41,820 nucleotides of DNA from Deltaproteobacteria bacterium (lineage in GTDB: Bacteria > Desulfobacterota > Desulfobacteria > Desulfobacterales > SURF-7): NCBI GenBank assembly GCA_019307665.1, contig JAFDJC010000002.1:1-41820 (forward strand), in the 5' to 3' direction. Numbering within the stretch: the first letter of the stretch is position 1; each line of letters begins with the position of its first letter. Position numbers and translations under genes: made by a program. The notes beneath the pieces were generated by a model that ran no database searches, was not told where the DNA came from, and saw only the letters and a program-made list of their open reading frames with translations. Positions 6,640-23,947 of this stretch are shown piece after piece.

Positions 6640-7782
6640 CTACATCAGCTTTGAAATGATCATTTTCTGAATATCGGAAGTTCCGCCTCCGATGGGAGCA
6701 AGGCGGCTGTCACGCATAATTCTTTCCATATCATATTCATGGCAGTATCCGTACCCGCCGTGAAGAACCATGGCATCATTTGCAGGAGCCATGCTCCAGT
6801 CACCCACAAATAGCTTTGCAACTGCGGCTTCAAGATGGTTCAGAGGACGGCCCTGGTCCTTGCAGTACGCTATCCTATATACAAGAGAGCGTGCCGCCTC
6901 TCCAAATATCCGTATATCAGCCAGCTTGTGCTTAATGGCCTGAAATTTCCCTATGGGTCTCCCGAACTGTTCTCTTTTCTTTGCGTAGTCTGCGCACCTT
7001 TTTAGCATGAAAGTGGAAGCTCCTACAAACGGGGCCAGCAATGCACTTCTGTCCCATTCCACTGTCTGCATCGACATGTTAAAACCTTCCCCTTCTTTTC
7101 CGAGAAGATTTTCAGCCGGAATCTCACAGTTGTCGAGAAAAAGCTCGGAAGTCTGGGAAGTGCAGACACCCATCTTTATCAGGTTTGGTCCTGATTTGAA
7201 ACCTTTGGTCCCTTTCTCAACGATAAAAGCTGAAATACCGGCATGATGCTTTTCAGGATCTGTTTTAGCATAAATTACCGATACATCAGCTATGGGGCCA
7301 TTGGTAATAAATATCTTGCTACCGTTTAAGATATATTTGTCGCCCTTCTTTTCAGCGGTAGCCTTAAGTGAAGCCACATCAGACCCTGCATCGGGTTCCG
7401 TAAGCCCCATGCACCCTATCCACTCTCCACTTGCCAGTTTTGGAATGTATTTTTTACGCTGTTCATCTGTTCCGTGTGAAAAGATCGTGTCAGCGCATAA
7501 AAAAGTATGAGCTCCGTAAGCGAGTGTAAGGCCTCCGTCTACGCCTGCTTCACCGAGTGCCTCACCTGCCATAACAGTAGTAATGACATCAGCATCACTA
7601 CCGCCCAGCTCTTCCGGAAAGTGAAGCCCCAGAATGCCGAACTCACCCAATTTTCTGAACGATTCAAAATCGAATTGTTTTTTAAGGTCATGTTCCTGAA
7701 CCCTGGGCACAATCTCTTTTTTTGCAAAATTGATGACTTCCTTCTTGAACATCAACTGCTCTTTTGTAAATGCAAAATCCAT
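6640..7782 (-). CDS. acyl-CoA dehydrogenase
   Basis: 380 aa. Motifs GCMGLTEPDAGSD, KIFITNG, GEGFNMSMQTVEWDRS, MRDSRLAPIGGGTSDIQKMIISK (IVD-like E-I-G-A-G-T-S type C-terminus). AGGAG sits 7-8 nt upstream of the ATG. Confidence 0.9.
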   Translation of the reverse strand: MDFAFTKEQLMFKKEVINFAKKEIVPRVQEHDLKKQFDFESFRKLGEFGILGLHFPEELGGSDADVITTVMAGEALGEAGVDGGLTLAYGAHTFLCADTIFSHGTDEQRKKYIPKLASGEWIGCMGLTEPDAGSDVASLKATAEKKGDKYILNGSKIFITNGPIADVSVIYAKTDPEKHHAGISAFIVEKGTKGFKSGPNLIKMGVCTSQTSELFLDNCEIPAENLLGKEGEGFNMSMQTVEWDRSALLAPFVGASTFMLKRCADYAKKREQFGRPIGKFQAIKHKLADIRIFGEAARSLVYRIAYCKDQGRPLNHLEAAVAKLFVGDWSMAPANDAMVLHGGYGYCHEYDMERIMRDSRLAPIGGGTSDIQKMIISKLM

Positions 7783-8864: not shown

Positions 8865-9074
8865 TTACATTAACTTTGATAACTGAACTGATGAGCTAAC
8901 CGAAAACTCCGATGGATTACTAGTAGCCTGCTCGGTTATGTCATGCTTCCACACTGTCTTTAAGCATTCTCTCTGGTCAATACCTGAACGCCTTTCAGGT
9001 ATATACAAGGAATATGAAAAAATTCTTCTTTCAACTCCGCACCGTCTCTCTTTTGAATAATTTGTCATCAACAC
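8865..9074 (-). CDS. small Arg-rich protein of unknown function
   Basis: 69 aa ending 4 nt upstream of the next gene. It carries tandem motifs ERRCGVERR and ERRSGIDQR. Support is positional only, with no domain match. Confidence 0.4.
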   Translation of the reverse strand: MLMTNYSKERRCGVERRIFSYSLYIPERRSGIDQRECLKTVWKHDITEQATSNPSEFSVSSSVQLSKLM

Positions 9075-9244
9075 TGAAGGCTCCTGTTGCTATATATGTT
9101 TACAAGTATCCAAGAAACATTACGTCCAACGCAGAACTATGTGTTTTCTATTATTACCAATTCAAGCTTCTTAAATTTTTTGAGTTTTGTTTCACAAACA
9201 CTTTACTTGAATCTTATGTCAGCTATCAAATCATCGCACCGTAA

Positions 9245-9523
9245 TTACCTATATATGAAAAAACAGATGAATAGACAATATGGAATGATCATGGGTAAAA
9301 TATGGAATAAAGACCCATATTGTTTTATGTTAACAAGGTAGGTTTTGAGGTTAATTTTTCTGTTTTTTATTCCAAGCTTCTTGCGAATACTGTCACGATA
9401 AGTATCAATTGTACTTGTAGCAACTCCTAATAACTTAGCCATTTCTTTAGTGGTTTTTCCGTTTTTTACAAAATTAGCAACCTGAAATTCTACGGGTGTA
9501 AACTTTAAAAATATTGAGTTCAA
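9245..9523 (-). CDS. LuxR/GerE-type HTH domain protein, probably a stand-alone fragment
   Basis: FTPVEFQVANFVKNGKTTKEMAKLLGVATSTIDTYRDSIRKKLGIKNRKINLKTYL matches the LuxR_C HTH pattern. The ORF begins at a TTG right at the domain boundary, so there is no sensor or receiver domain, and it ends in a hydrophobic tail. Confidence 0.6.
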   Translation of the reverse strand: MNSIFLKFTPVEFQVANFVKNGKTTKEMAKLLGVATSTIDTYRDSIRKKLGIKNRKINLKTYLVNIKQYGSLFHILPMIIPYCLFICFFIYR

Positions 9524-9618
9524 TTTGCGGGAAAACGGAGAGGTAATGACGTTTCTCCGAATACTCCTCTTTTTGCAATTTCATCCCACACTTCTTCTGA
9601 AATTCTTATTGTTCTCAT
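9520..9618 (-). CDS. 32-aa ORF with strong SD, overlapping the LuxR ORF start
   Basis: GGAGGGAGCT-ATG at 9618. It encodes MRTIRISEEVWDEIAKRGVFGETSLPLRFPAN, and its TGA overlaps the TTG of the next ORF (aaTTGA). It is below the ORF-track length cutoff and may be a leader peptide or a gene remnant. Confidence 0.3.
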   Translation of the reverse strand: MRTIRISEEVWDEIAKRGVFGETSLPLRFPAN

Positions 9619-9913
9619 AGCTCCCTCCTTTTATGGTTGTTGAAGGATATATTAATCACATTATAACAAGGTGTTAAGTAATGTTTTTTATTAAGTTTCC
9701 AAATATATAAAATGTTTATTATTCTTGCATATTTATCCAATTTACATTAATTATCTATTTTAACTTCCTTCTATTCATGGGATTTTATGAATAGTAATAT
9801 CAAGCGATTTCACTGGATAGCATGAAAGCCCCTGCGACCAGTGAACCTTAACGTTCGCTTCCACTCAAACAATGCTCAATGAATACCACTATGAGCTAAG
9901 GAGGGATAAAATA

Positions 9914-10120
9914 ATGAAAGAATTTAGCGTAATAATTGAAAAAGATGAGGATGGTTATTTTGTTGCTTCTGTACCGACACTCCGGGGATGTCATACTCAG
10001 GCAAAATCTCTTGATACATTAATTAAGAGAATTAAAGAGGCTATTGAACTTTGTCTTGAAGTGGAAAAACCGACATCCAGTGAATTTATTGGTATCCAAA
10101 AAGTGGCGGTAAACTTATGA
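9914..10120 (+). CDS. hicB: HicB-family antitoxin
   Basis: MKEFSVIIEKDEDGYFVASVPTLRGCHTQAKSLDTLIKRIKEAIELCLE is the UPF0150/HicB N-terminal fold signature. AAGGAGGG lies upstream of ATG 9914, so the track start at 9872 is probably too early. An ATGA overlap joins it to hicA. Confidence 0.85.
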   Translation: MKEFSVIIEKDEDGYFVASVPTLRGCHTQAKSLDTLIKRIKEAIELCLEVEKPTSSEFIGIQKVAVNL

Positions 10121-10341
10121 CTACGTTCCCCTCAATAACCGGTAGTCGATTAATTCGTGCTCTGCGTAAACTGGGATTCGAAGTAATACGAATAAAAGGC
10201 AGCCATCATTTCATGTTGCATCAAGACGGTCGATGTACCGTTGTTCCTCTGCATAGAGGAGAGAGTATAGGTCGTGGGCTTCTTGCTCAAATTTTACGAG
10301 ACTGTGATATCACAAAAAAAGAATTACAGAAAAAGCTTTAA
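10117..10341 (+). CDS. hicA: HicA-family mRNA interferase toxin
   Basis: 74 aa. LIRALRKLGFEVIRIKGSHHFMLHQDGRCTVVPLHRGESIGRGLLAQILRD is the YcfA/HicA pattern, including the catalytic-region G-S-H. Confidence 0.9.
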   Translation: MTTFPSITGSRLIRALRKLGFEVIRIKGSHHFMLHQDGRCTVVPLHRGESIGRGLLAQILRDCDITKKELQKKL

Positions 10342-10486
10342 GTGAACATTGACTGCACCTGACGCCAAAAGCCGAGCCGTTTGGGAAGTTTTTACAGGAG
10401 TTTCAGAGATAAACACCCATCCACAGTTCAACTATTTGATTTTCAAACAGTTTCTTGCCATTTTGTGCTTGACATGTAAGACCCTA

Positions 10487-10735
10487 CTATATATGGTGGG
10501 GTAGCCATTCAGCTTTTTTTATTATATCACGGTCTTCAAACGAATCGTAATTCAGATACACCGATTTTTGAATTGTTTTCGCGATTTCCCTGGATAAAAA
10601 TGTTTTCCCTACCTGCCTTGGACCGATTATAAAGACCATTTTTTTTGAAAGATCTTTAATGATAAGTTTTTGCTGAGCACGCCTCATACGGACTATTATG
10701 CATAGCTTTGCAAAATAATCAAGACTTTTCCGCAA
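10487..10735 (-). pseudogene. N-terminal fragment of a COG1373-type AAA+ ATPase
   Basis: The sequence stops after VFIIGPRQVGKTFLSREIAKTI...YLNYDSFEDRDIIK, roughly 80 aa. Intact family members as I recall them are several-fold longer. No continuation exists in any frame. Confidence 0.65.
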
Positions 10736-10810
10736 ACCATTGCGAAAAAGTCATAAAAATAGCCTCCTTGGCCAAAACACTTTGCTTTTTTCCAGGGCAT
10801 TTTTAACTTC

Positions 10811-10838
10811 TCAAGTTATGCCAAAATTCTGCCGATAA
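10811..10838 (+). promoter_or_regulatory. sigma28 (FliA)-type promoter relic
   Basis: TCAAGTTA-12 nt-GCCGATAA compares with the consensus TAAAGTTT-N11-GCCGATAA, and the -10 element is a perfect match. It lies about 87 nt upstream of the fliD remnant. Confidence 0.5.
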
Positions 10839-10924
10839 TATATTAAATCTATATGTAAATCCTTTTTTGCGGTAATATAATGACACTATTCTTTTCACAT
10901 TCTTTTCAAAGGGGAGATTCCAGC

Positions 10925-11202
10925 ATGACGTCACTCGGCAGTATTACCAGCCTTGGTGTCGGATCGGGCTTTGACCTTCAGCAAATGCTTGAGGATTTCA
11001 GAAAAGTCGATGAGTCCCCCATCAATTCGATGTCTTAAACCTTTCCCTTGAATCTAATTTTATTGAAAGAAGCGTTTCCGTATCAGATGAGGATGTAGCC
11101 ACAGCGACCGCTCTTGCCGGAGCACTCAAGCACATCCGTCTCGTAGAAGATGGAATCAAAGAAAACGATGTCCCACAAAAAGGGGCGAAAACACAGCATT
11201 AA
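10925..11202 (+). pseudogene. fliD: collapsed flagellar filament cap gene remnant
   Basis: ATG 10925 opens MTSLGSITSLGVGSGFDLQQMLEDFRKVDESPINSMS followed by a stop, which matches the FliD N-terminal signature. A second frame at about 11070..11202 gives SVSVSDEDVATATALAGA..., a typical internal FliD segment. About 280 bp in total remains of the gene. Confidence 0.6.
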
Positions 11203-11283
11203 TTGACAATTCTTATTTCCCGCCTTATATTTCTTCGTCAACTGTCAAAAAGCCAAAAAAAGCTAAAAATAAGGATTCGACAA

Positions 11284-13567: not shown

Positions 13568-15148
13568 TTATATGCTCTGGGTACCAGACCTTACATCAGA
13601 TGTATCCGGCGGCACCCATCGCAATCCGCCCTTAAACCCAAATGCCCTGTAAATATAAAATGTTCTGGCAGGCTCTTTTTTATCTGAATAAAACGGATCC
13701 CTAAAAACATTAACCTCAACCGGAGGTTCCACCCTGTCAAAAACCTGGTTTAATGTTTTTTGGTGATCATCAGAATGACTTGTGATACCGATGGCATCAA
13801 ACCCGATATAGTCTTCATCTTTGCACCAGTAATCATATACATTCGGACGGCTCCACCTGTTTATGGAAACCGTGTCCGGCTGTCCGGGAGTGTAAAATGC
13901 AAGCTCGCTTGCGATCTGGTAACGCTTTCCGAACAAAAAAGTCTTTTCAGGATTCGGCATCTGTTTCATCATGCCATCAACTTTTTGACCGATCATTTTC
14001 CATCCCGTCACTTCCCGTGCAACCCGGTCAAGCTTTTTGGAAATTGGCAAGATCGGCACTGCAACATGTAAAAGGAGTATGGCGGTAAGGATGTAGGATG
14101 TCCCGATGGCCCACGGCCAGGCCTTTCGGTATAGCACAGGAACATTGTCATCACTGCCGCCGCTGCCTTTACCTGCATAAAGTGCTGCTGCAAGAACAAA
14201 CGCCGTCAGATAGCAGGCTCCAGGCCAGTTTCCGTAAACCCTTTTGTGAAGGCTTAACACGGCAAAACCGGCAAACATGACAAACGAACAAAGGAACATA
14301 TAGAGATAAATCGGATTTTTTCGAATATTTCGAACCGCATAATAACAGGCATAAAGGACAAGAACAAAAACAATGGGTGACAGAAGCCCTACCTGTGATG
14401 CCAGGTAGTCGCCCAGGTATTTTAAGTGGAGTTCAAAACCTGTATTGGCACCGCCGATGTGCGCCACGTGTCGGACTGAATTCCACCCGTTTTCCGCGTT
14501 CCAATAAATTACCGGCAAAAACATTAAAAACCCGAGCATAAGGCCTGCATAAGGCCTGATCCGAAGAAGCCTGTCCCTGTATTCCGGCAAAACAAGACCA
14601 AAAAGGTACGCGCCCGGCAAAAAAATCACCATGGTAAACTTGGCAAGCATCCCAAACCCGAACCAGAAACCTCCGAGAAGCCACTCATTCCATGTGTCGT
14701 TTTCATACGCCTTTGCCACGTGAAATGCCGCGCCTGCCCATCCTGCAGACTGAAGCGCATCTGTTGTGGCAAGAAGTCCTCCGACATTTAATTCCAGGAT
14801 GCCCTGGGTAAGAAGTGCCGTATGAAAAGCAGCCCTTGCGCCAAACCATCGTCTCGCCATTGCAACCATATAGATAGAAGCAATCCCCATTGACAAAACA
14901 GACGGAAGACGCACCGCCCTTTCATTCTGGCCGAAAAGTTCCGTTGAAAGCCGTATTGCCCATCCGATTAAAGGCGAATTGTCGTGATATCCCCACGCAA
15001 GATGTCGGCTCCATTGCCAGTAATTGGTCTCATCCGGCACCAGGAGAAAAAGGCCTGAGTAAAAAATCCTGAAAAACATCAAACCGATGACGATGAGCCA
15101 GGCAGCATTGATGTAGTTTTTTTCTTTGCTTTGCATCATTAATTCCAA
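13568..15148 (-). CDS. GT-C fold glycosyltransferase (ArnT/PMT_2, GT39/83-like) number 1
   Basis: 526 aa polytopic membrane protein. Its first-loop motif is VPDETNYWQWSRHLAWGYHDNSPLIGW, matching the D-E...Y-x-D-H/N-P-P pattern of ArnT-like enzymes. Confidence 0.85.
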   Translation of the reverse strand: MELMMQSKEKNYINAAWLIVIGLMFFRIFYSGLFLLVPDETNYWQWSRHLAWGYHDNSPLIGWAIRLSTELFGQNERAVRLPSVLSMGIASIYMVAMARRWFGARAAFHTALLTQGILELNVGGLLATTDALQSAGWAGAAFHVAKAYENDTWNEWLLGGFWFGFGMLAKFTMVIFLPGAYLFGLVLPEYRDRLLRIRPYAGLMLGFLMFLPVIYWNAENGWNSVRHVAHIGGANTGFELHLKYLGDYLASQVGLLSPIVFVLVLYACYYAVRNIRKNPIYLYMFLCSFVMFAGFAVLSLHKRVYGNWPGACYLTAFVLAAALYAGKGSGGSDDNVPVLYRKAWPWAIGTSYILTAILLLHVAVPILPISKKLDRVAREVTGWKMIGQKVDGMMKQMPNPEKTFLFGKRYQIASELAFYTPGQPDTVSINRWSRPNVYDYWCKDEDYIGFDAIGITSHSDDHQKTLNQVFDRVEPPVEVNVFRDPFYSDKKEPARTFYIYRAFGFKGGLRWVPPDTSDVRSGTQSI

Positions 15149-15334
15149 TTTATATCAGTGCAGTTAAAATATCAAGGAGCATTGAAGCCAGAACTTTTCC
15201 CAAAAACATAGCTAAGGCATTGGCAAACGTATTAAATTCAGGTGTTGAGTCGGATTAGCAAGTGGAAAAGCCATTTTTTGATAAATTTTTGGGAAATTTT
15301 CAAAATATTTTTGTAAAACGATAAAATGGATGAT

Positions 15335-15380
15335 GGGTGGTGCCGGCAACTCGTTGCCGGCATCCGAAGGACAAGAAGCC
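15335..15380. repeat. 46-nt hairpin-containing repeat, copy A
   Basis: GGGTGGTGCCGGCAACTCGTTGCCGGCATCCGAAGGACAAGAAGCC. The stem is tgccggcaa/ttgccggca with loop CTCG. An inverted copy lies at 17139..17185. Confidence 0.55.
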
Positions 15381-15878
15381 ATCTAAATAAAATGTCTCTG
15401 CCGATATTCCCTTTCTCTACTTAAAACCTGCCGGTTTTTGGTTTGGTTTTTTGTTGTTTTGAAAATGATATCACCATTATTTATTTAATTACAATTGGTT
15501 ATATCGGAAAAATATCCCAAGGTCTTGGCCTCTCTAAAACCATGACATAGACAAATCATATCCCCAAAATGACTTTTAGTTATTTCTTTTTGATATCGCA
15601 GATTCTTTTTTATATGCAGTGCATAAAATAATCATTTTATCTAAATTTCATAATTAATGGGTTTTTGTCGTTTAATACTTTAATTAGGGGGTAAAAGATG
15701 TTTTTGAACAATGTTCGGATTTTTTTGTTTCCAGCCATTTCTTCTAACATCCATAAATTATAGAAAATATAAATTTGTTGAATTATCCATCACATTTGTT
15801 ATCGTGGTCGAAAATCGCGGTATTTTAATCAATTCGAGAAATTCTATTTAATAATATAGTTCGGCAAGGAGGATTGTT

Positions 15879-16838
15879 ATGAGATCGGCAAACCAAAGGA
15901 AAGTGGCCATAGTCGGTGCAGGAGCTGTGGGTTCGACGTTTGCCTACGCCCTCGCACAAAGCGGCTTGGCCGACCAGATTGTACTCATCGACCAGAACAG
16001 GGATCTCGCCCAAGGTCAGGTGCTGGACCTTGCCCATGGACAGCCATTCTTTCCTGCCGTATCCATTCGAAAGGGCAGCGCTTCCGATTACGGTGATGCC
16101 CAGCTGATTGTAATCACAGCTGGGACCGCCCAGCGACCAGGCGAGACGCGCCTTCAGCTTCTCCTGAGAAACGCTACGATCATGCAAAGCATAGTTGACG
16201 ATGTCGCCAAGCAGAACCCAAACGGCGTGATACTCATCGTCAGCAATCCTGTGGATGTGATGACTAACGTTGCCATCCAGAGCGCTGGTGACGCAAGAGG
16301 CCGAGTGTTCGGGTCAGGCACGGTTCTGGACAGCGCCCGTCTCCGGTATTTCCTGAGTGAGTGTTGTGGAGTCGACGTACACAACGTGCATGCATATATC
16401 TTGGGCGAGCATGGCGATTCGGAGTTCGCGGCTTGGTCAATGACGCATATAGCGGGTATGCCGATCGATGAATTCTGTCAGATCTGCGGGCGGTGCCCCG
16501 ATTGGACTGCTGAGCGCAACACGATTGAGCAGAAAGTGCAGAATTCTGCCTACCACATCATTGACTACAAGGGGACCACCTGTTTCGCGGTTGGCCTCGC
16601 CCTAGTTCGCATTGCAGGTGCGATTCTGCGTGGGGAGAGAAGTGTTCTCACCGTGTCGACCAAGCTGGATGGCGAGTTCGGACTTCAGGATGTTTGCCTC
16701 AGTGTACCGTGCATCGTGTCCGCAGGAGGTGTTGAGAGGGTTCTCGAGAGCCAACTGCCGGACAATGAAATAGCGGCTCTCCGGGCTTCCGCCTCGGTGC
16801 TCAAGGAGGCAATTGCGCAACTCGATGTGGAAGTCTGA
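15879..16838 (+). CDS. ldh: NAD-dependent L-lactate dehydrogenase
   Basis: 319 aa. Motifs KVAIVGAGAVGSTFAYAL, ITAGTAQRPGETRLQLL (Gln at the substrate-specificity position, as in LDH rather than MDH), VSNPVD, ILGEHGDSEFAAWS. AAGGAGG lies 6 nt upstream. The coding sequence is markedly GC-richer than its flanks. Confidence 0.92.
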   Translation: MRSANQRKVAIVGAGAVGSTFAYALAQSGLADQIVLIDQNRDLAQGQVLDLAHGQPFFPAVSIRKGSASDYGDAQLIVITAGTAQRPGETRLQLLLRNATIMQSIVDDVAKQNPNGVILIVSNPVDVMTNVAIQSAGDARGRVFGSGTVLDSARLRYFLSECCGVDVHNVHAYILGEHGDSEFAAWSMTHIAGMPIDEFCQICGRCPDWTAERNTIEQKVQNSAYHIIDYKGTTCFAVGLALVRIAGAILRGERSVLTVSTKLDGEFGLQDVCLSVPCIVSAGGVERVLESQLPDNEIAALRASASVLKEAIAQLDVEV

Positions 16839-17138
16839 GAAGAGATCCGGTGCCGAACAAAGCCATAGAGGCGACACCCTAAAGGGCGCGCCTCATGGCA
16901 TGCGTTCAAGTGATCTCCTCTGGAAGTATGAAATTTCGAAAGCAAGTAATTCTGAGATCGGCAAATCAAACATAAGCAAAAAGTGACTCTCCGAAAATTA
17001 CATATTTATCGTTGATCGCACTAAACCCTTAACTGGTAACTTCCTTTGACGATCAATAAGGCGGGATTAACAGCTATGATATAAAATGCCATATTTTTTT
17101 GGTTCATCAATCTTCCATTTTTGCTATAAGTGAACAAA

Positions 17139-17185
17139 GGTTTCTTGTGCTGTCGCACCCGGACAACGAGTTGTCCGGGCCACCC
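17139..17185. repeat. hairpin-containing repeat, copy B (inverted relative to copy A)
   Basis: Its reverse complement reads GGGTGGCCCGGACAACTCGTTGTCCGGGTGCGACAGCACAAGAAACC. The stem is cccggacaa/ttgtccggg with the same CTCG loop. Stem differences from copy A are compensatory. Confidence 0.55.
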
Positions 17186-17313
17186 AAACGTGTGCTATCC
17201 GTTTCTTTTTTAAACGAAAAAAAATTGGGGAAAGTTCAGTCATTGAAACAGGATCATTGAAAAAACGTGCCAAACCATATACAAGAAAACAAGCAATATA
17301 AGAAACAGTAGCC

Positions 17314-18807
17314 ATGGAAAAACATTATAAAAAAATATTCATTACAATAATTGCCGTAAAGCTGCTTCTTGCCTGGCTGTTTCCCATTACATCCGATGAA
17401 GCCTACTTCTACACATGGACCAAACAGTTGGACGTCAACTTTTATGATCACCCCCCCATGACCGGCTGGGCTGTCTGGCTTTTTTCTTCTTTTGGGGATC
17501 ACATTTTCTTTTTAAGGTTCTTCACCGTTCTTTGTGGAGTGGTGGTGGCCGCCGGTATCTTTTTTATCATAAAAGAACTTTTTAAAGATCATGAAAAGGC
17601 CGCCATTGTATCACTCTCATTTCTTGTTGCTCCCCTGCATATGCTGTTTTTTCCCATCAGCACTGACTCGCCGCTGTTTGTTTTTGTTTTTCTTTCGGGC
17701 GCTGCCTTTTATTATGGCGTCAACCGTAAAACACCCGGCCTCGTCTTCTTGTCCGGTATTTTTCTGGGCCTTGCTGTCCTCAGTAAATACTTTGCAGGCC
17801 TTCTGCTCATCGCCTTTTTTACCTGTATTTTTATAAAAAAGGAACGCCGGCCCGTAAAAAACAGCCTCCTGCTTCTTGCCGGATCTGTTCCCTTTGTGCT
17901 GTTGCATCTTTACTGGAATTACATGAGCTGTTGGACCAACATCATGTTCAATGTGATCAACAGAAATAAAAACATCTCTTATGACTTTTCAGGACTGCTT
18001 GTTTTCCCGGCATGCCAGATCTATCTTGCGACACCATGGCTTCTTTATTTTCTTTTTAAAAATTTCAGGCATGTTTTGGAAAAGATCAAACAAGACAACA
18101 ACCTGTTTATCTATTTTTATCTTATACCCATCATGATACTGTTCCTTGTATCATTTTACAATACAGGTCTACACTGGGTGCTTGCCTTTTATCCTTTCCT
18201 GTTTTTACTTACGGCATATCTTAAAAAAGAAATTCTGAAAAAAATTGTTAAATATTCTCTGGTATTCAGCCTTGTCCACCTGGCATTGATCTTTATTGTC
18301 CTTTTGCTCCCGATTGAGACGTTCAAAAACCACCAATACTATCATGATTTTGTTCTCTGCATGCATGGTGACGAGGTATATGAAAAACTGACAGATCAAT
18401 TCGGATCTGATTATATCCTTGCAACAAACGGTTATTACACTTCAGGAGCGCTTGCCTATTTCAGCAAAAAAAGATGTATTGTGTTTCTTGACAACTCAAA
18501 ATACGGGCGGCACGATGACAAGCTGACGGATTTTAAAAGGCTTGACGGAAAAGACATTCTGGTATTTGCCACCCTTGAATTAAAAGCCGACTACACCCCG
18601 TTTTTTAAACAAATCAAGAAAGAAAAGCTGACTGTAAGACAGAACGATTTCAATATACTAATTGGCAAAGGGTTTAACTACAGTGCATACAAAGAACTTT
18701 TCCTGAAAAAAATTCTTCAAGACCGGTATGATATTCCTGATTTTCTGCCTGTGGGCGACTGTTATTTTTATAACCTCTATTTTCCTGAAAAAAATTGCCC
18801 GAATTAA
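17314..18807 (+). CDS. GT-C fold glycosyltransferase (ArnT/PMT_2-like) number 2
   Basis: 497 aa polytopic protein. ITSDEAYFYTWTKQLDVNFYDHPPMTGW is the classical ArnT/PMT first-loop motif. Confidence 0.85.
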   Translation: MEKHYKKIFITIIAVKLLLAWLFPITSDEAYFYTWTKQLDVNFYDHPPMTGWAVWLFSSFGDHIFFLRFFTVLCGVVVAAGIFFIIKELFKDHEKAAIVSLSFLVAPLHMLFFPISTDSPLFVFVFLSGAAFYYGVNRKTPGLVFLSGIFLGLAVLSKYFAGLLLIAFFTCIFIKKERRPVKNSLLLLAGSVPFVLLHLYWNYMSCWTNIMFNVINRNKNISYDFSGLLVFPACQIYLATPWLLYFLFKNFRHVLEKIKQDNNLFIYFYLIPIMILFLVSFYNTGLHWVLAFYPFLFLLTAYLKKEILKKIVKYSLVFSLVHLALIFIVLLLPIETFKNHQYYHDFVLCMHGDEVYEKLTDQFGSDYILATNGYYTSGALAYFSKKRCIVFLDNSKYGRHDDKLTDFKRLDGKDILVFATLELKADYTPFFKQIKKEKLTVRQNDFNILIGKGFNYSAYKELFLKKILQDRYDIPDFLPVGDCYFYNLYFPEKNCPN

Positions 18808-18944
18808 GACCAGACTATGATCAGATTAGAATCGGGTTAGAAGTTTGACCGATTCCGGCAGCTTATTGCCTTTAGTGATCTTATTTGCTATGGTACCCGG
18901 AACGATTTAATATGTTTAGGCATTTAGCACTTTAAAATTAAAAT

Positions 18945-19820
18945 ATGATGAAATTTAAATCCTTCATTCATTTGGCCAGACCTCACCAGTACATGAAAAA
19001 CGGGTTTGTCTGGCTGCCGCTCTTTTTTGCAGGCCAGGTGCATAACCTTAACTCTGTTTTGCATACTTTTTATGCATTTATTGCATTCTGCCTGGCGGCA
19101 AGCAGCATCTATATTATTAATGACATCAAAGATGCCGAAGAGGACAAACTGCACCCGCTTAAAAAATTCAGGCCGATTGCATCAGGCGAGTTAAACCGTT
19201 TTGAAGCCGGCTGTTTCTTTATCATCCTTCTTTTTTCGACCGGTATGCTGTCCTTTTCTTTTCTGCCGAATTCATTTCTTTATATTGTGGGCGGATATAT
19301 TATTCTTAACCTTGCCTATTCGGGGTTTTTGAAACATATAGCGATTATCGATGTGGTATGCATCGCAATGGGATTTGTTCTGAGGGTCAGGGCGGGCGGT
19401 ATAGCCGGAGATGTGGCCATAAGTCCCTGGATTATGATTATGACATTTCTTCTTGCCATGTTTCTCGCTCTTGCCAAAAGAAGAGACGACCTGCTTCTTT
19501 CCGACAATGGAATCGGTTCAAGAAAATCCCTGGATGGATACAATCTTGAATTTGTTTCCGCCAGCATGATTGTCATGGCGTCTGTCATCATCGTTTCATA
19601 TATTCTTTATTCTGTTTCGCCCGAGGTGATTGAAAAACATGGAACCGCAAACCTTTATCTGGCCTCTTTCTGGGTTATTGTGGGGCTTTTAAGATACATG
19701 CAGATTACCTTTGTCGAGAAACAAAGCGGGTCTCCGACCATGATTCTTTTAAAGGACTATATGCTGCAGGCCATAGTGATTCTATGGCTTTTAAGCATCT
19801 ATCTTCTGATTTACCATTAG
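18945..19820 (+). CDS. UbiA-family polyprenyl-phosphate phosphoribosyltransferase (Rv3806c/DPPR synthase-like)
   Basis: 291 aa with about 8 TM segments. It carries the Asp-rich motif and flank IINDIKDAEEDKLHPLKKFRPIASGEL and a second motif ALAKRRDDLLL. Confidence 0.8.
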   Translation: MMKFKSFIHLARPHQYMKNGFVWLPLFFAGQVHNLNSVLHTFYAFIAFCLAASSIYIINDIKDAEEDKLHPLKKFRPIASGELNRFEAGCFFIILLFSTGMLSFSFLPNSFLYIVGGYIILNLAYSGFLKHIAIIDVVCIAMGFVLRVRAGGIAGDVAISPWIMIMTFLLAMFLALAKRRDDLLLSDNGIGSRKSLDGYNLEFVSASMIVMASVIIVSYILYSVSPEVIEKHGTANLYLASFWVIVGLLRYMQITFVEKQSGSPTMILLKDYMLQAIVILWLLSIYLLIYH

Positions 19821-19897
19821 TACCTTAGAAATTATTTTCTGCACATTTTTCGCAGAAAACAATTTCGTCAAGGTACTTATCCAGCTCGGCTGGGTTA
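19816..19897 (+). repeat. intercistronic structured repeat, long copy
   Basis: ATTAGTACCTTAGAAATTAT, then a 45-nt insert with hairpin TTTCTGC..GCAGAAA, then CCAGCTCGGCTGGGTTA. It starts at the stop codon of the upstream gene. A short copy lies at 27242..27278. Confidence 0.6.
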
Positions 19898-19906
19898 GGT
19901 ACTTTT

Positions 19907-21205
19907 ATGGAACTGACAAGCTGGGGACGACATCCACGGATCGCAGCATCCTCTTCATCATTTGAAACAGAGGGTGAACTCCTTCGTACGCTTGAAAAAG
20001 GCGGCGACATTATTGCCCGCGGACTGGGAAGAAGCTACGGTGACAGTGCCCTTAACAGCAATGTCATTTCAACTGCAAGATTTAACAAAATACTCGCCTT
20101 TGATCCGTCAAACGGCCTTGTTGTATGTGAAAGCGGCGTAACCCTGGCAGAACTTATAGAAATATTTCTTAAAAGGGGCTGGTTTTTATCGATAACTCCC
20201 GGCACGCGGTTGATAACTGTCGGCGGCGCCATAGCAAGCGATGTTCACGGAAAAAATCACCATACTGCCGGATGTTTCAGTGAATGTGTCGAGTGGTTCG
20301 AACTTATGCTCCCGGATAAAAGCATTGTCCGGTGCAGCAGGGAGGAAAACAGGGAACTGTTTCTAGCAACCTGCGGCGGTATGGGACTTACCGGAATTAT
20401 CCTGACTGCCGCCATCAGGCTGAAACGGGTCAACAGCGCGTATATCCGTGAAACCGTTATCAGGTGTAACAATCTTTCTGAAATTTTCCATCTTTTTGAC
20501 GTGTATCAGGCTACGACATATTCGGTGGCCTGGATAGACTGTGCAGCATCGGGAAAACGCCTCGGAAGATCTGTTTTAATGGCAGGTGAACATGCCGAGG
20601 CAGGAAAACTGAACATACCGCTTCCGCGCACCCTGTCCGTGCCGTTTGATTTGCCGAGCTTTTGCCTGAACAAATATTCTGTTTCCATTTTTAACCGGCT
20701 CTACTTCAACACCAGCCCGTCACATATTAAAGACAGGCTTGTCCTTCTGGAACCATTTTTCTATCCACTTGATAAAATCGGCAACTGGAACCGTATATAC
20801 GGCAAGAAAGGTTTTACACAATATCAACCGGTCATTCCCAGGGAAAGCGCCTATGAAGCGCTTAAGGAGATACTCAACAGAATAGCAAAACAGGGACTCG
20901 GTTCTTTTCTTGCTGTCCTCAAACTGTTCGGGCCTGAAAATGAAAACTTCATCTCCTTTCCCATGGGCGGATACACACTGGCGCTTGATTTTAAAATAGA
21001 ACCAAGGCTGTTTCCTTTTCTGGACGAGCTTGACAGAATCGTCATCGATTTCGGCGGACGTGTCTATCTCACAAAAGATGTCAGAATGTCAAAAGAGGTG
21101 TTCAGAAAAGGTTACCCGGGGTGGGAACAGTTCGCGGAAATAAGGGAAAAATACAAAATGAAGGGTAAATTCGAATCTCTTCAGTCAAAAAGGCTTGAGG
21201 TGTAA
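19907..21205 (+). CDS. FAD-dependent oxidase, DprE1-like (polyprenyl-P-ribose 2'-oxidase)
   Basis: 432 aa. SWGRHPRI...ARGLGRSYGDSALN...ITVGGAIASDVHGKNHH matches the FAD_binding_4 plus ALO-type layout typical of DprE1 homologs. Confidence 0.8.
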   Translation: MELTSWGRHPRIAASSSSFETEGELLRTLEKGGDIIARGLGRSYGDSALNSNVISTARFNKILAFDPSNGLVVCESGVTLAELIEIFLKRGWFLSITPGTRLITVGGAIASDVHGKNHHTAGCFSECVEWFELMLPDKSIVRCSREENRELFLATCGGMGLTGIILTAAIRLKRVNSAYIRETVIRCNNLSEIFHLFDVYQATTYSVAWIDCAASGKRLGRSVLMAGEHAEAGKLNIPLPRTLSVPFDLPSFCLNKYSVSIFNRLYFNTSPSHIKDRLVLLEPFFYPLDKIGNWNRIYGKKGFTQYQPVIPRESAYEALKEILNRIAKQGLGSFLAVLKLFGPENENFISFPMGGYTLALDFKIEPRLFPFLDELDRIVIDFGGRVYLTKDVRMSKEVFRKGYPGWEQFAEIREKYKMKGKFESLQSKRLEV

Positions 21206-21207
21206 AT

Positions 21208-21939
21208 ATGAATCTTTTGGTTTTAGGTGCAAATTCTGATGTGGCACATGCGGTTTCGAAAAAGTTTGCGAAAGAAGAAAAAGTAAACCTTTATCTTGCT
21301 TCGCGCAACATGGAAGTTCTTGAGAAAAAAGCACAAGACCTTCAAACAAGATTTGGTGTTAACGCAAAAGTATTATTTTTTGATGCAGAAGACGGGCAAT
21401 CTCGAAAAGATTTTTATGAATCACTCGACCCCCGGCCTGATGGAGTCATACTTGCTTTCGGATATCTCGGTGATCAGGAAAAGGCGCAGGACAGTTTTGA
21501 AGAAGCGGAAAAAATTATTAACACAAACTTTACACATGCTGTTGCCATTCTTGAAGTCATTGCAAAAGATTTCGAAAAAAGGGGTCATGGTTTCATAGTT
21601 GGTATAAGTTCCGTCGCAGGAGAACGTGGCCGTAAAAGCAATTATTTCTATGGCGCCGCCAAAGGCGCCCTGTCGATTTATCTAAGCGGGCTCAGAAACA
21701 GGCTGTCAGGGCGTGGAATAAACGTTATCACCATTCTGCCTGGTTTTATCGATACAAAAATGACTGAGGGCATGGATTTACCGGGCGCCCTCACCGCATC
21801 ACCGGATGAAGTTGCTGAAGACATCTATGTCGCCTTCAAAAAAAATAAGAGCATCGTCTATACTAAATGGTTCTGGAAGTGGGTAATGGCGATTATAAAA
21901 TCGATTCCTGAACCGATTTTCAAACGCATGAGTCTGTAA
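21208..21939 (+). CDS. short-chain dehydrogenase, DprE2-like (2'-keto reductase)
   Basis: 243 aa beginning 3 nt after the DprE1-like stop. It has an atypical SDR N-terminus LVLGANSDVAHAVSKKF, as in DprE2-type proteins, plus YGAAK and ILPGFIDTKM. Confidence 0.75.
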   Translation: MNLLVLGANSDVAHAVSKKFAKEEKVNLYLASRNMEVLEKKAQDLQTRFGVNAKVLFFDAEDGQSRKDFYESLDPRPDGVILAFGYLGDQEKAQDSFEEAEKIINTNFTHAVAILEVIAKDFEKRGHGFIVGISSVAGERGRKSNYFYGAAKGALSIYLSGLRNRLSGRGINVITILPGFIDTKMTEGMDLPGALTASPDEVAEDIYVAFKKNKSIVYTKWFWKWVMAIIKSIPEPIFKRMSL

Positions 21940-21971
21940 CATTTGCTCTGTAGCATTTGTATAGGTCAGGC

Positions 21972-22943
21972 ATGACGCATTTTGAACCGGCTTATATTAA
22001 AACATATGAGACAGGCAGCCTGAATAAAAAGATAGAAAAAGCATATCAGGCTTTAAAAAACTGTAGGCTCTGCCCGCGAAAATGCGGGGTTGACAGGACA
22101 GCAGGAAAAACCGGCATATGCCTGACCGGGGAAAAAGCGGTTGTATGCAGTTTTAACGCTCATTTTGGTGAAGAATCTCCATTGGTGGGCACTAACGGTT
22201 CGGGAACGATTTTCTTTACGTACTGCAACCTGATGTGCAATTTCTGTCAAAATTATGAAATCAGCCATGGCGGTGAAGGCGAACCCGTAGTCCCGGAACA
22301 GATTGCACGCATGATGCTTATCCTGCAAAAACAAGGTTGTCACAATATTAACTTTGTCAGCCCAAGCCATGTTGTTCCCCAGATTCTTGCGGCTGTCGGC
22401 GTGGCGATAGAGAACGGCCTGTCAGTTCCGCTTGTCTATAACACCAGCGCATATGACAAGGTCGAGACACTGAAATTGCTGGAAGGCGTGGTGGATATCT
22501 ACATGCCTGATTTCAAATTTCAGGATCCTGAAATTGCCGAAAGCACGTGTAAAGCAAAAGACTACCCTGAATATGCACAAAATGCCCTGGTTGAAATGCA
22601 CCGCCAGGTCGGCGACCTGATAACTGATCCGCTAATGGATGAGTCCGGAATCGCTCAAAGGGGCCTTATCATCAGACACCTTGTTCTCCCGAACCGGCTC
22701 GCCGGAACACGGGAAGCAATGACATTCATTGCCGAAAAAGTTTCCATAGACAGTTATGTAAATATCATGCCCCAGTATCGACCATGCGGCCTCGCACATG
22801 AAACAAAGGGGATGAACCGGGCAATCACGGAAGAAGAATTTGAAACAGCTGTCAGGGAAGCATCGTCAGCCGGTATCCATAGATTTGACAACAGGGAATT
22901 CCGGGGACAGTATATCTATTTCGACAGGAAGTGCCTCGAATAA
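21972..22943 (+). CDS. radical SAM protein, PflX/COG1313-like (activase-related)
   Basis: CRLCPRKCGVDR...GICL (N-terminal Cys cluster), then FFTYCNLMCNFCQNYEIS (CX3CX2C). ATG 21972 is preferred over the non-ATG track start at 21957. Confidence 0.85.
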   Translation: MTHFEPAYIKTYETGSLNKKIEKAYQALKNCRLCPRKCGVDRTAGKTGICLTGEKAVVCSFNAHFGEESPLVGTNGSGTIFFTYCNLMCNFCQNYEISHGGEGEPVVPEQIARMMLILQKQGCHNINFVSPSHVVPQILAAVGVAIENGLSVPLVYNTSAYDKVETLKLLEGVVDIYMPDFKFQDPEIAESTCKAKDYPEYAQNALVEMHRQVGDLITDPLMDESGIAQRGLIIRHLVLPNRLAGTREAMTFIAEKVSIDSYVNIMPQYRPCGLAHETKGMNRAITEEEFETAVREASSAGIHRFDNREFRGQYIYFDRKCLE

Positions 22944-22997
22944 AACAAAAGCAGTGGTGAAATAGATATACTGTCCCCGGAAAACTGTCCCCGGAAA
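22899..22997. repeat. 24-bp perfect inverted repeat enclosing the radical SAM stop codon, plus a 14-nt tandem duplication
   Basis: Left arm ttccggggacagtatatctatttc (22899..22922, inside the CDS). Right arm gaaatagatatactgtccccggaa (22959..22982). The 36-nt loop holds TAA 22941..22943. actgtccccggaaa occurs twice in tandem (22970..22997). Confidence 0.7.
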
Positions 22998-23058
22998 ACA
23001 TTATATTTTGGCGAAATTTTGGATTGCTATGAAACTGAGTAACTGACGGGAGAAGGCC

Positions 23059-23382
23059 TTGGATTTTTTATATCAGCCACCGTTAAACCTTTACCTCACC
23101 GCAGCATTATCAGTAATCTCGATAATCTCAATCGTATTATGCGTCCAGAGATTTAGAACGGCATATCATGACCCGGAAGAATACTCATGCGCTACCTGGT
23201 TTATAAAAGGCATACGCAGTTTGCTAATCTCCTTAACAGCAGGAGCATGGGCTGCCGGTTTATTTTGGAACCAGCGCTGGCTTTTCATAATAGGTCTGGT
23301 CATTATTTGCCAAGAACTTTGGGAAGGGGCTATTTTGAGTTCCCTTTTACGAAAGGGCATAAAAATAGATAAGGGTGAGTAA
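23059..23382 (+). CDS. small integral membrane protein (3 predicted TM)
   Basis: 107 aa with a TTG start preceded by GGGAGAAGG. Three hydrophobic stretches are visible, with no recognisable family. Confidence 0.45.
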   Translation: MDFLYQPPLNLYLTAALSVISIISIVLCVQRFRTAYHDPEEYSCATWFIKGIRSLLISLTAGAWAAGLFWNQRWLFIIGLVIICQELWEGAILSSLLRKGIKIDKGE

Positions 23383-23389
23383 GTCTTGC

Positions 23390-23947
23390 CTATTCCTTAG
23401 CAATCTTCTTCCACAGTTCAGCAGTTTCTTTTTGTGCTTCAGTGATTTGAGCTGACGTCATTTTAGATTCGATAATAGAGATATTATGTTTTGCTTTTTC
23501 GTCCCCCTGTGCGGATGCCAGGCTAAACCAAATATACGCTTTTTTATAATTATTTTGTATGCCTTTACCATTTGCATACATGTTACCTAAGGTATACTGA
23601 GCCTCGGCAAGTCCTTGTTTAGCAGCCTTTATATACCATTTAACAGCTTTAGCATAGTTTTGTGGTACTCCTTCACCATTTTCATACATGATGCCTAAGT
23701 TATACTGGGCAAAACGACCTCCATGTCCAGCAGCTTTTGTAAACCATTTAAAAGCCTCAGCATAGTTTTGTGGCACGCTGTCGCCTTTGCGATACATAAA
23801 GCCTACGACGGATTGAGCCTTCACATCTCCCTGTTTAGCTTTTTCTAAAAGCCCTTCTAAATCTATGCCTTCAGAAAAAGCAGCACCGGTAAAAACTAAA
23901 ATACAAGAAAACAATAACACCAAGTGTAAAAATGATTTTTTAATCAT
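23390..23947 (-). CDS. secreted Sel1-repeat (SLR) protein
   Basis: 185 aa with a signal peptide and four tandem units of the type AQ-x-LG-x-MY-x-NG-x-GVPQNY-x-KA-x-KWY-x-KAA. Confidence 0.9.
   Translation of the reverse strand: MIKKSFLHLVLLFSCILVFTGAAFSEGIDLEGLLEKAKQGDVKAQSVVGFMYRKGDSVPQNYAEAFKWFTKAAGHGGRFAQYNLGIMYENGEGVPQNYAKAVKWYIKAAKQGLAEAQYTLGNMYANGKGIQNNYKKAYIWFSLASAQGDEKAKHNISIIESKMTSAQITEAQKETAELWKKIAKE

Follow-up and report, generated by a model that had tools for sequence, protein, structure and literature searches.

A predicted polyprenyl-phosphate arabinofuranose donor operon with ArnT-like transferases in a Desulfobacterales bacterium, and lipopolysaccharide as its candidate acceptor

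Organization of the operon

The stretch of DNA analysed in this study (the window) comprises 41.8 kb of contig JAFDJC010000002.1 from an uncultured bacterium whose closest named relatives are Desulfobacterales metagenome-assembled genomes (MAGs); all coordinates follow the numbering of the whole stretch. At positions 17314-21939, it carries four genes, three of which in all likelihood provide a polyprenyl-phosphate-linked arabinofuranose (Araf) donor, because the three donor-forming enzymes find specific best matches, retain their active-site residues and are encoded in the syntenic order UbiA-DprE1-DprE2. The product of the first gene, the glycosyltransferase GTC1, has an ArnT-like fold, and the fuller reading, in which the donor is used in the periplasm on a lipopolysaccharide (LPS) acceptor, is considered fairly probable. 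The cluster is a new example of a known and widespread pathway type, not a new system.

The list of open reading frames (ORFs) and Pfam reproduced the layout proposed in an initial annotation of the sequence, with four same-strand genes followed by a radical SAM gene and a second, divergent GT-C gene:

17314-18807, plus strand: GTC1, ArnT-like GT-C (497 aa; Pfam PMT_2), proposed polyprenyl-phosphate-Araf-dependent transferase
18945-19820, plus strand: predicted polyprenyl-phosphate 5-phosphoribosyltransferase (PPPRS) of the Rv3806c type, UbiA superfamily (291 aa; Pfam UbiA)
19907-21205, plus strand: DprE1-like FAD-dependent oxidase, predicted to act on the 2' position of polyprenyl-phosphate-ribose (432 aa; Pfam FAD_binding_4, with ALO)
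21208-21939, plus strand: DprE2-like short-chain dehydrogenase/reductase (SDR), predicted polyprenyl-phosphate-2'-keto-pentofuranose reductase (243 aa; Pfam adh_short)
21957-22943, plus strand: radical SAM gene (Pfam Radical_SAM), starting 17 nt past the DprE2 gene
13568-15148, minus strand: GTC2, second GT-C and divergent partner of GTC1 (526 aa; Pfam PMT_2)

The stop codon of the DprE1 gene lies 2 nt from the start of the DprE2 gene, and the spacer between the GTC1 and UbiA genes measures 137 nt. JGI metagenomes yielded a near-identical strain contig (L091) and relatives with a UbiA protein of ~82% identity (L001/L002), in all of which the full six-gene order is kept.

Enzymes of the donor pathway

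The UbiA homolog was compared with the two NCBIfam models for decaprenyl-phosphate phosphoribosyltransferase, passing NF008978 with 210.3 bits (cutoff 207) and falling just under the cutoff of NF008977 with 230.6 bits (cutoff 234). The paralogous models gave 31 bits for CyoE/CtaB (heme o synthase) and 22-23 bits for UbiA, so that a quinone or heme prenyltransferase was ruled out by the profile scores. Its sole relatives in the PDB were two structures of Rv3806c (8j8j, E 3.6e-34, 30% identity), in agreement with the initial assignment to the Rv3806c type rather than the MenA/UbiA/CyoE type. The protein contains the motif NDIKDAEEDKLHPLKKFRPIASGEL, whose counterpart in the alignment with Rv3806c is NDVRDVEADREHPTKRFRPIAAG. 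PRPP (phosphoribosyl pyrophosphate) and Mg are contacted by K28, Y70, N73, D77, Q135 and Y138 in the cryo-EM structure of Rv3806c (PMC10994848). The UbiA homolog has the NDxxDxxxD loop and, at five of these positions, identical residues (K18, Y56, N59, D63 and Y125 for K28, Y70, N73, D77 and Y138), with Q135 replaced by N122; the aligned contact positions were invariant in 21 of 21 homologs. The assignment as a phosphoribosyltransferase of the Rv3806c type is thus supported at the sequence level, and the enzyme is predicted to convert PRPP and polyprenyl-phosphate to polyprenyl-phosphate-ribose-5-phosphate.

The oxidase matched the NCBIfam DprE1 model over its full length (E 4e-123, 412 bits), under the equivalog cutoff of 500. 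Against the PDB, DprE1 was found at E 1.5e-82 over residues 3-431, with 40% identity to the M. smegmatis enzyme, compared to E 7e-9 for the next FAD-dependent family, which places the protein with DprE1 and not in an unrelated clade, as initially suggested. Residues H114, K116, Q305, Q307 and K390 align with H132, K134, Q334, Q336 and K418 of M. tuberculosis DprE1, which we take to have the roles assigned to them in DprE1 structures. The position of Cys387 in the M. tuberculosis enzyme (Cys394 in M. smegmatis) is occupied by Ala359, with the catalytic lysine K390 and the FAD-site histidine and lysine kept; Cys387 is the covalent target of benzothiazinones and not needed for catalysis. The SDR scored 330 bits with PRK07102, an unnamed SDR model of NCBIfam (cutoff 267), and 191.6 bits with the DprE2 model, under its cutoff of 250. 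Among structures, it matched DprE2 (21gq_C) at E 4.4e-28 with 29% identity, versus 9e-14 for the next SDR, and its triad S135/Y148/K152 aligns with that of DprE2, which again speaks for the predicted family and against an unrelated SDR clade.

Strict equivalog membership is thus attained by neither DprE homolog. The low scores presumably reflect distance from actinobacterial training sequences; the DprE1 model is presumably mostly actinobacterial. The validated DprE1 of P. aeruginosa is only 33% identical to the M. tuberculosis enzyme (bioRxiv 10.1101/2020.04.19.049825), compared with the 40% found here for the M. smegmatis protein. Judged by their sequences, the predicted pathway enzymes each match their mycobacterial counterpart far better than any paralogous family.

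Conservation of the cassette

Searches with the UbiA homolog returned thousands of relatives in a set of 5.8 billion proteins, some of them Desulfobacterota MAG entries already named decaprenyl-phosphate phosphoribosyltransferase, and 458 relatives were confirmed among GTDB species genomes after a search with two peptide patterns. Synteny was counted on the 80 best related loci from these genomes, which belonged mostly to Desulfobacterales, Desulfovibrionales, Syntrophobacterales and Desulfobaccales, with a few from Nitrospirota, Campylobacterota, Gammaproteobacteria, Bacteroidota and Bacillota. The UbiA gene was followed by DprE1 (plus DprE2) in 50 of the 80 loci, by a different partner in 15 and by neither in 13; 2 loci were too short. 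This arrangement is far beyond chance, and the three-gene route represents a module that is both widespread and conserved, not a peculiarity of the window.

The survey of related genomes thus sustained the gene assignment and removed the premise of rarity that had come with it. The pathway had been presented as remarkable outside the Corynebacteriales; this view is outdated, as pentofuranose glycosylation systems have already been described as widespread (Kelly et al., PNAS 2024, PMC11127046), an example is known from P. aeruginosa and the cassette is common across the Desulfobacterota. The text of the supplement to Kelly et al. (PMC11127046) contained no Desulfobacterota example that we could find.

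It is conceivable that the DprE1 and DprE2 homologs do not give arabinose, leading instead to ribofuranose or another pentose, or that they act on a different lipid-linked substrate. Their scores below the equivalog cutoffs would be compatible with such a role, as would the donor promiscuity of GT-C enzymes found by Kelly et al. (PMC11127046). Moreover, a Desulfobacteraceae MAG (L044:4736-9862) carries the genes GTC1-UbiA-LptF-LptG without DprE1 or DprE2, and the GT-C is therefore apparently able to use a ribo donor; this locus may represent the same LPS-linked module in a ribofuranose variant. A product other than arabinose is nevertheless judged very unlikely for the window, since the catalytic residues of both DprE homologs are kept, their genes are translationally coupled and syntenic with UbiA in 50 of the 80 loci, and the Araf-containing glycans surveyed by Kelly et al. 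(PMC11127046) came with DprE1/E2 homologs.

Further departures from the common gene order were seen. In 15 Desulfovibrionales loci, the UbiA/PPPRS gene is followed by a single ORF of ~775 aa in which a DprE2-like SDR is joined to a B12-binding and a radical SAM domain, with no DprE1 homolog (L045:10771-13098 in Solidesulfovibrio sp. DCME; also L038, L041, L046, L049, L052, L054, L055, L058, L062, L063, L065, L066, L070 and L076). In these anaerobes, the radical SAM part may act with DprE2 as the sugar-modifying enzyme in place of the DprE1 flavoenzyme, or it may add another modification; literature searches returned no description of this fusion. On a 503-kb contig (L089:8345-21668), the genes GTC2 (minus strand), GTC1, GT2-like fragments, DprE1, DprE2, LptF, LptG, a Kdo transferase and LpxK lie together with no UbiA gene within 10 kb, so the cassette is separable from its PPPRS.

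ArnT-like GT-C transferases

GTC1 and GTC2, which share 21% identity, matched Pfam PMT_2 with 76.7 and 124 bits, respectively. An AlphaFold model of GTC1, obtained from an alignment of 45 GTC1 homologs (pLDDT 90, pTM 0.88), had ArnT (5ezm) as its top fold match in the PDB over the full length (E 3.7e-6, TM-scores 0.61/0.57), followed by PglB, OST and Pmt. Below these, AftB (E 0.022) and Emb (E of at least 0.18), together spanning E 0.02 to 3, gave partial alignments; given such weak fold matches and no sequence match, the GT-Cs were ruled out as arabinosyltransferases of the Emb/Aft type. The residues D28-E29, immediately after the first transmembrane helix (residues 5-22), are invariant in the 45 homologs, as is the segment Y44-D45-H46-P47-P48 (YDHPP), which aligns with the YFEKPP segment of ArnT. 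With a full-length GT-C fold match and an acidic motif after the first transmembrane helix, GTC1 qualifies as an ArnT-like GT-C, which bears out the ArnT/PMT-like nature initially attributed to the first gene. At the sequence level, the similarity of both proteins to ArnT is marginal (E 0.006-0.008): ArnT was the sole PDB match of the GTC1 family profile as well as of GTC2 (5ezm, E 0.008), which also matched the NCBIfam ArnT model at E 3e-4.

The divergent GTC2/GTC1 pair is kept in L001, L002, L011, L013, L014, L019, L030 and L089. GTC1 homologs adjoin the UbiA/DprE cassette in Desulfobacterales, in an Arcobacter MAG (L083; 36%-identical homolog after UbiA-GtrA-DprE1-DprE2) and in Gallionellaceae (L086 and L087), where a 38%-identical homolog heads the order GTC1-DprE1-DprE2-HAD-UbiA (L086). 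In several phyla, GTC1 is therefore the GT-C that accompanies the Araf cassette. Cultured bacteria carrying the cluster include Desulfosudis oleivorans, Desulfocicer vacuolatum DSM 3385 and Desulfosarcina alkanivorans PL12, with Sulfurirhabdus autotrophica as a carrier of the betaproteobacterial form.

As an alternative, the GT-Cs could O-glycosylate a protein such as pilin, flagellin or an S-layer component, after the manner of TfpW or the actinobacterial PMT/GT39 enzymes, with the donor pathway unchanged. P. aeruginosa provides a precedent for the combination of PPPRS, DprE1 and DprE2 with a GT-C, many GTC1 homologs are named 'glycosyltransferase family 39 protein' by NCBI, and fliD and fliS lie ~5 kb upstream of the cluster in L001. 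We consider a protein acceptor improbable: no pilin or S-layer gene adjoins the cluster, the window retains mere remnants of fliD and fliS but an intact cluster, yeast Pmt aligned with the GTC1 model over ~250 columns only (TM-score 0.31-0.34) compared to the full-length match of ArnT, and GTC1 is devoid of the TPR domain described for TfpW.

Proposed route and acceptor

In the proposed route, the UbiA-family enzyme would move 5-phosphoribose from PRPP onto a lipid phosphate at the cytoplasmic face of the membrane, after which the 5-phosphate would be taken off by a phosphatase encoded elsewhere. The DprE1-like flavoenzyme would oxidise the C2' hydroxyl group of the ribose to a 2'-keto sugar, with menaquinone presumably serving as the reoxidant in an anaerobe, and the translationally coupled DprE2-like SDR would reduce the keto sugar to the arabino configuration. 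The resulting polyprenyl-phosphate (most likely undecaprenyl-phosphate) beta-D-arabinofuranose would be flipped by a flippase encoded outside the window and used in the periplasm, where GTC1, and probably GTC2 too, would move Araf to an envelope acceptor; LPS would be modified before its export by the Lpt machinery. From homology and gene context we infer which lipid serves as the carrier, which sugar is made, in what order the steps take place and, above all, which acceptor is used.

LPS, at a lipid A (phosphate) or inner-core position, is regarded with middling confidence as the most likely acceptor, because of the ArnT-like fold of GTC1, the LPS-centred neighbourhoods of GTC1 homologs and cassette, and the precedent of Araf-modified lipid A. 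Among the 40 loci with enough downstream sequence, 11 have lptF-lptG directly after DprE2, and the order GTC2 (minus strand)/GTC1-HAD-UbiA-DprE1-DprE2-LptF-LptG is found in L011, L013, L014, L019 and L030. Three GTC1 homologs of 49-52% identity lie in comparable surroundings: in L088, the gene is clustered with those for an MsbA-like ABC transporter, two PAP2 proteins, Lip_A_acyltrans and two heptosyltransferases; in L089, it is grouped with LptF, LptG, a Kdo transferase and LpxK; and in L090, it adjoins PAP2. A heptosyltransferase gene (Glyco_transf_9) is also located ~1 kb upstream of the Gallionellaceae cassette in L086. As to the precedent, lipid A phosphates bearing D-arabinofuranose are a reported natural variant (review PMC5713287), and arabinose is invariably present in the LPS of Rhodocyclus tenuis strains (PMC8954225). 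A protein search with the Gallionellaceae GTC1 homolog P0227 was uninformative on Rhodocyclus, the best 120 matches being all Gallionellaceae-like (at least 61% identity), with no Rhodocyclus among the matches listed. Araf-lipid A was reportedly described decades ago in the phototrophic betaproteobacterium Rhodospirillum tenue/Rhodocyclus tenuis.

A more specific version of this reading is put forward tentatively. GTC1 (with GTC2) might place D-Araf on a lipid A phosphate or the innermost core, and the order GTC2/GTC1-HAD-UbiA-DprE1-DprE2-LptFG might be the genetic basis of a D-Araf-lipid A that is standard in many sulfate-reducing Desulfobacterales and in Gallionellaceae. As a corollary, the strictly anaerobic Desulfovibrionales may have swapped DprE1 for a B12-binding radical SAM domain fused to DprE2. 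If true, capping of lipid A or core with neutral D-Araf would be a common means by which environmental anaerobes hide anionic phosphates or substitute for them, and it would influence the charge of the outer membrane, the binding of metals and the resistance to cationic peptides. It would also make the old chemical finding of D-Araf on lipid A accessible at the level of genes and extend the acceptors of PRPP-derived pentofuranoses beyond arabinogalactan and lipoarabinomannan (LAM), pilins, Nod factors and O-antigen side chains. Literature searches returned no description of the cassette in Desulfobacterota or on lipid A, nor of an ArnT-like GTC1 and an lptFG/lipid A-core context of the cassette; the combination of ArnT-like transferases with an LPS-centred context is apparently an unpublished acceptor hypothesis that is both specific and testable. 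If the acceptor is not LPS, the locus adds a further example to a widespread pathway.

The linkage to lptFG would also fit an O antigen carried on LPS, and the same donor could decorate the side chains of an O-antigen, capsule or exopolysaccharide after polymerisation, as in the systems of Kelly et al. This is the best-documented Gram-negative use of a PPPRS with a GT-C, plus DprE1/E2 (PMC11127046). It appears unlikely here, however, as no genes for Wzx, Wzy, Wzm, Wzt or an initiating transferase were found in the window or beside the cassette in L030, and GTC1 and GTC2 are PMT_2/ArnT-like proteins. In addition, the cassette is kept across a whole order, unlike patchy serotype genes, and GTC1 homologs adjoin genes for lipid A and core synthesis, not O-antigen genes.

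Several points weigh against donor synthesis followed by transfer to LPS. Linkage to the lpt genes is limited to about a quarter of the loci, no LPS gene adjoins the cluster in the window, and ArnT-like folds are also known from enzymes with other acceptors. GTC1 homologs (~50% identity) are also found beside a small GT2 resembling polyprenyl-phosphate-hexose synthases, with no UbiA gene nearby (L088 and L090), and the donor specificity of the GTC1 family is therefore not fixed. Both DprE homologs miss their NCBIfam equivalog cutoffs (412 versus 500 and 191.6 versus 250 bits), and the window contains neither a phosphatase nor a flippase gene. The proposed link to LPS rests on fold and neighbourhood. 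For Desulfovibrio desulfuricans, a paper on LPS composition lists no arabinose and casts doubt on an earlier report of ribose.

The L088 and L090 loci share a recurring block of the order PAP2-PMT_2 (a third GT-C type)-small GT2-GTC1 homolog(-PAP2), at L088:4694-10698 and L090:6709-11539. It resembles lipid A remodelling loci in which phosphatases are paired with ArnT-like transferases and a polyprenyl-phosphate-sugar synthase.

Comparison with known systems

The core enzymes are homologous to those of the mycobacterial and corynebacterial decaprenylphosphoryl-arabinose (DPA) pathway (Rv3806c, Rv3807c, DprE1 Rv3790, DprE2 Rv3791, Rv3789 and Emb/Aft), with 30%, 40% and 29% identity for the UbiA, DprE1 and DprE2 proteins. 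Common to both are the conserved PRPP-contact and catalytic residues, the adjacent DprE1 and DprE2 genes and a GT-C as the predicted user of the product. In contrast, the window has neither a PAP2 phosphatase nor a GtrA-like Rv3789 homolog, its GT-Cs are ArnT-like and not Emb/Aft-like, and its DprE1 has alanine at the Cys387 position. The host, moreover, is a Gram-negative anaerobe with no arabinogalactan or LAM, in which the carrier is presumably C55 and not C50. In practical terms, the locus offers glycoengineering a source of DprE1, DprE2 and PPPRS orthologs from a Gram-negative background, and its DprE1, naturally devoid of Cys387, lends itself to comparison.

In experiments, Kelly, Duong, Nothof, Lowary and Whitfield (PNAS 2024, PMC11127046) have established that O antigens receive pentofuranoses in the periplasm through the action of a PPPRS, a flippase and a GT-C. 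Their three-component system, with ORF15-ORF14-ORF12 of Citrobacter youngae O1/O2 (GT136) as the prototype, resembles the one proposed here in its PRPP-dependent PPPRS, optional epimerase (DprE1/E2 in the case of Araf) and periplasmic GT-C. Of its components, the window combines PPPRS and GT-C, while a dedicated flippase (MATE or GtrA/SMR-like) and a 5-phosphatase (HAD PRP domain or PAP2) are absent. The C. youngae prototype has its PPPRS fused to a HAD phosphatase domain and is accompanied by a MATE flippase, whereas the window has neither and its relatives have a separate HAD or GtrA. The GT-C of the window is an ArnT-like Pfam PMT_2 protein; that of the prototype is assigned to GT136. Furthermore, the context points to lipid A or core, whereas the systems of Kelly et al. 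act on O-antigen side chains.

Group IV pilin arabinosylation in P. aeruginosa (PsPA7_6245-6251 and TfpW) likewise relies, in a Gram-negative host, on homologs of Rv3806c, DprE1 and DprE2. TfpW, however, is a GT-C of 646 aa that contains a TPR domain and is encoded beside pilA, whereas the GT-Cs of the window are ~500 aa in size, ArnT-like and encoded beside the donor genes, with no pilin gene nearby. ArnT itself (GT83), the lipid A 4-amino-4-deoxy-L-arabinose transferase, is similar to GTC1 in its fold, and GTC1 homologs neighbour genes for PAP2 proteins resembling lipid A phosphatases and for LpxL, LpxK, WaaA and Lpt proteins. The difference lies in the donor, which would be a neutral D-pentofuranose derived from PRPP and not Und-P-L-Ara4N, and in the lack of ArnA, ArnB, ArnC and ArnD genes.

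Phosphatase, flippase and radical SAM gene

The initial annotation had seen no PAP2 phosphatase, and this was confirmed for the window: tblastn with the HAD, GtrA, LptF and LptG proteins of relatives gave zero matches across the 41.8 kb, and no PAP2 homolog was found either. The absence is a local loss, however, and the phosphatase of close relatives is a HAD protein, not PAP2, encoded upstream of UbiA. A separate HAD gene lies immediately upstream of UbiA, overlapping it in many cases, in 14 of the 73 related loci with room for it. The HAD gene is lost from the cluster in the lineage of the window (window, L001, L002 and L091), and the GTC1-UbiA spacer contains no HAD remnant; the phosphatase step would then be supplied elsewhere in the genome, or be dispensable. 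GtrA is encoded between UbiA and DprE1 in L003, L026, L035 and L083 and occurs in further relatives, too, and an LPG_synthase_TM gene follows the UbiA gene and cassette in the Gallionellaceae locus L086. In P. aeruginosa, loss of the phosphatase or the GtrA-like protein merely lowers glycosylation, the minimal set being PPPRS, DprE1 and DprE2 (bioRxiv 10.1101/2020.04.19.049825); the lack of both in the window is therefore compatible with function. A 107-aa membrane ORF at 23059-23382 was considered as a flippase and rejected, as it matches no Pfam family and is not kept in L001/L002.

The radical SAM gene was indeed found 17 nt past DprE2, as initially described, and its product contains the canonical motif C90-x3-C94-x2-C97 (from the translation). 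The label 'PflX-like' was not verifiable, since the libraries gave Radical_SAM and weak NCBIfam matches (AmmeMemoRadiSam radical SAM enzyme and NrdG), and a PDB search found no relative. The gene might nonetheless be a functional member of the pathway, for instance as an oxygen-independent helper or in a further sugar-modifying step: it is on the same strand and kept in relatives with an 82% identical UbiA, and Desulfovibrionales fuse a different radical SAM domain, of the B12-binding type, to the DprE2-like SDR in place of DprE1, so that radical SAM chemistry has been recruited to the pathway elsewhere. Such a role is distinctly improbable, however, as homologs adjoin the cassette only in the window, L001, L002 and L091 among ~90 loci, phmmer found no match to the Desulfovibrionales fusion ORFs at E <= 1e-5, and DprE1 is present and apparently intact, so that no replacement is needed. 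In other Desulfobacterales, lptF-lptG occupy the position of the radical SAM gene. In view of its restricted adjacency, weak NCBIfam matches and lack of PDB relatives, the gene was rejected as a conserved member of the system; it is probably co-transcribed, but a lineage-specific neighbour.

Neighbouring genes and rearrangements

The window has a G+C content of ~42%, and its other genes are ordinary chromosomal ones, encoding acyl-CoA dehydrogenases, thiolases, DctP, L-lactate dehydrogenase (LDH), LpoB, MltA and TatC. Rfam and tRNA scans of the window gave zero matches, and a promoter/terminator scan of 15100-23500 yielded counts not above those of shuffled sequences and no usable operon boundaries.

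Compared to L001, the divergent GT-C genes are separated by an inserted 2.2-kb block (~15187-17358), which comprises the LDH gene (15879-16838) and its flanks. The GTC2-GTC1 gap in L001/L002 amounts to 42 nt (by the coordinates of the called genes), and L091 shares the insertion. In L091 (JGI 3300033143), the gene call for DprE2 is split in two (64 and 188 aa; 7026-7740), owing to a strain frameshift or an assembly error. Upstream of an M29 peptidase gene, the window carries remnants of fliD (10970-11097) and fliS (11128-11214), where L001/L002 have an intact fliD-fliS. The stretch of 35% G+C before them (~8900-11200) contains small ORFs resembling a HicB/HicA-type pair (9872-10341), a LuxR-type helix-turn-helix protein (9245-9523) and a truncated ATPase (10487-10735); these features suggest an insertion that broke the flagellar cap genes.

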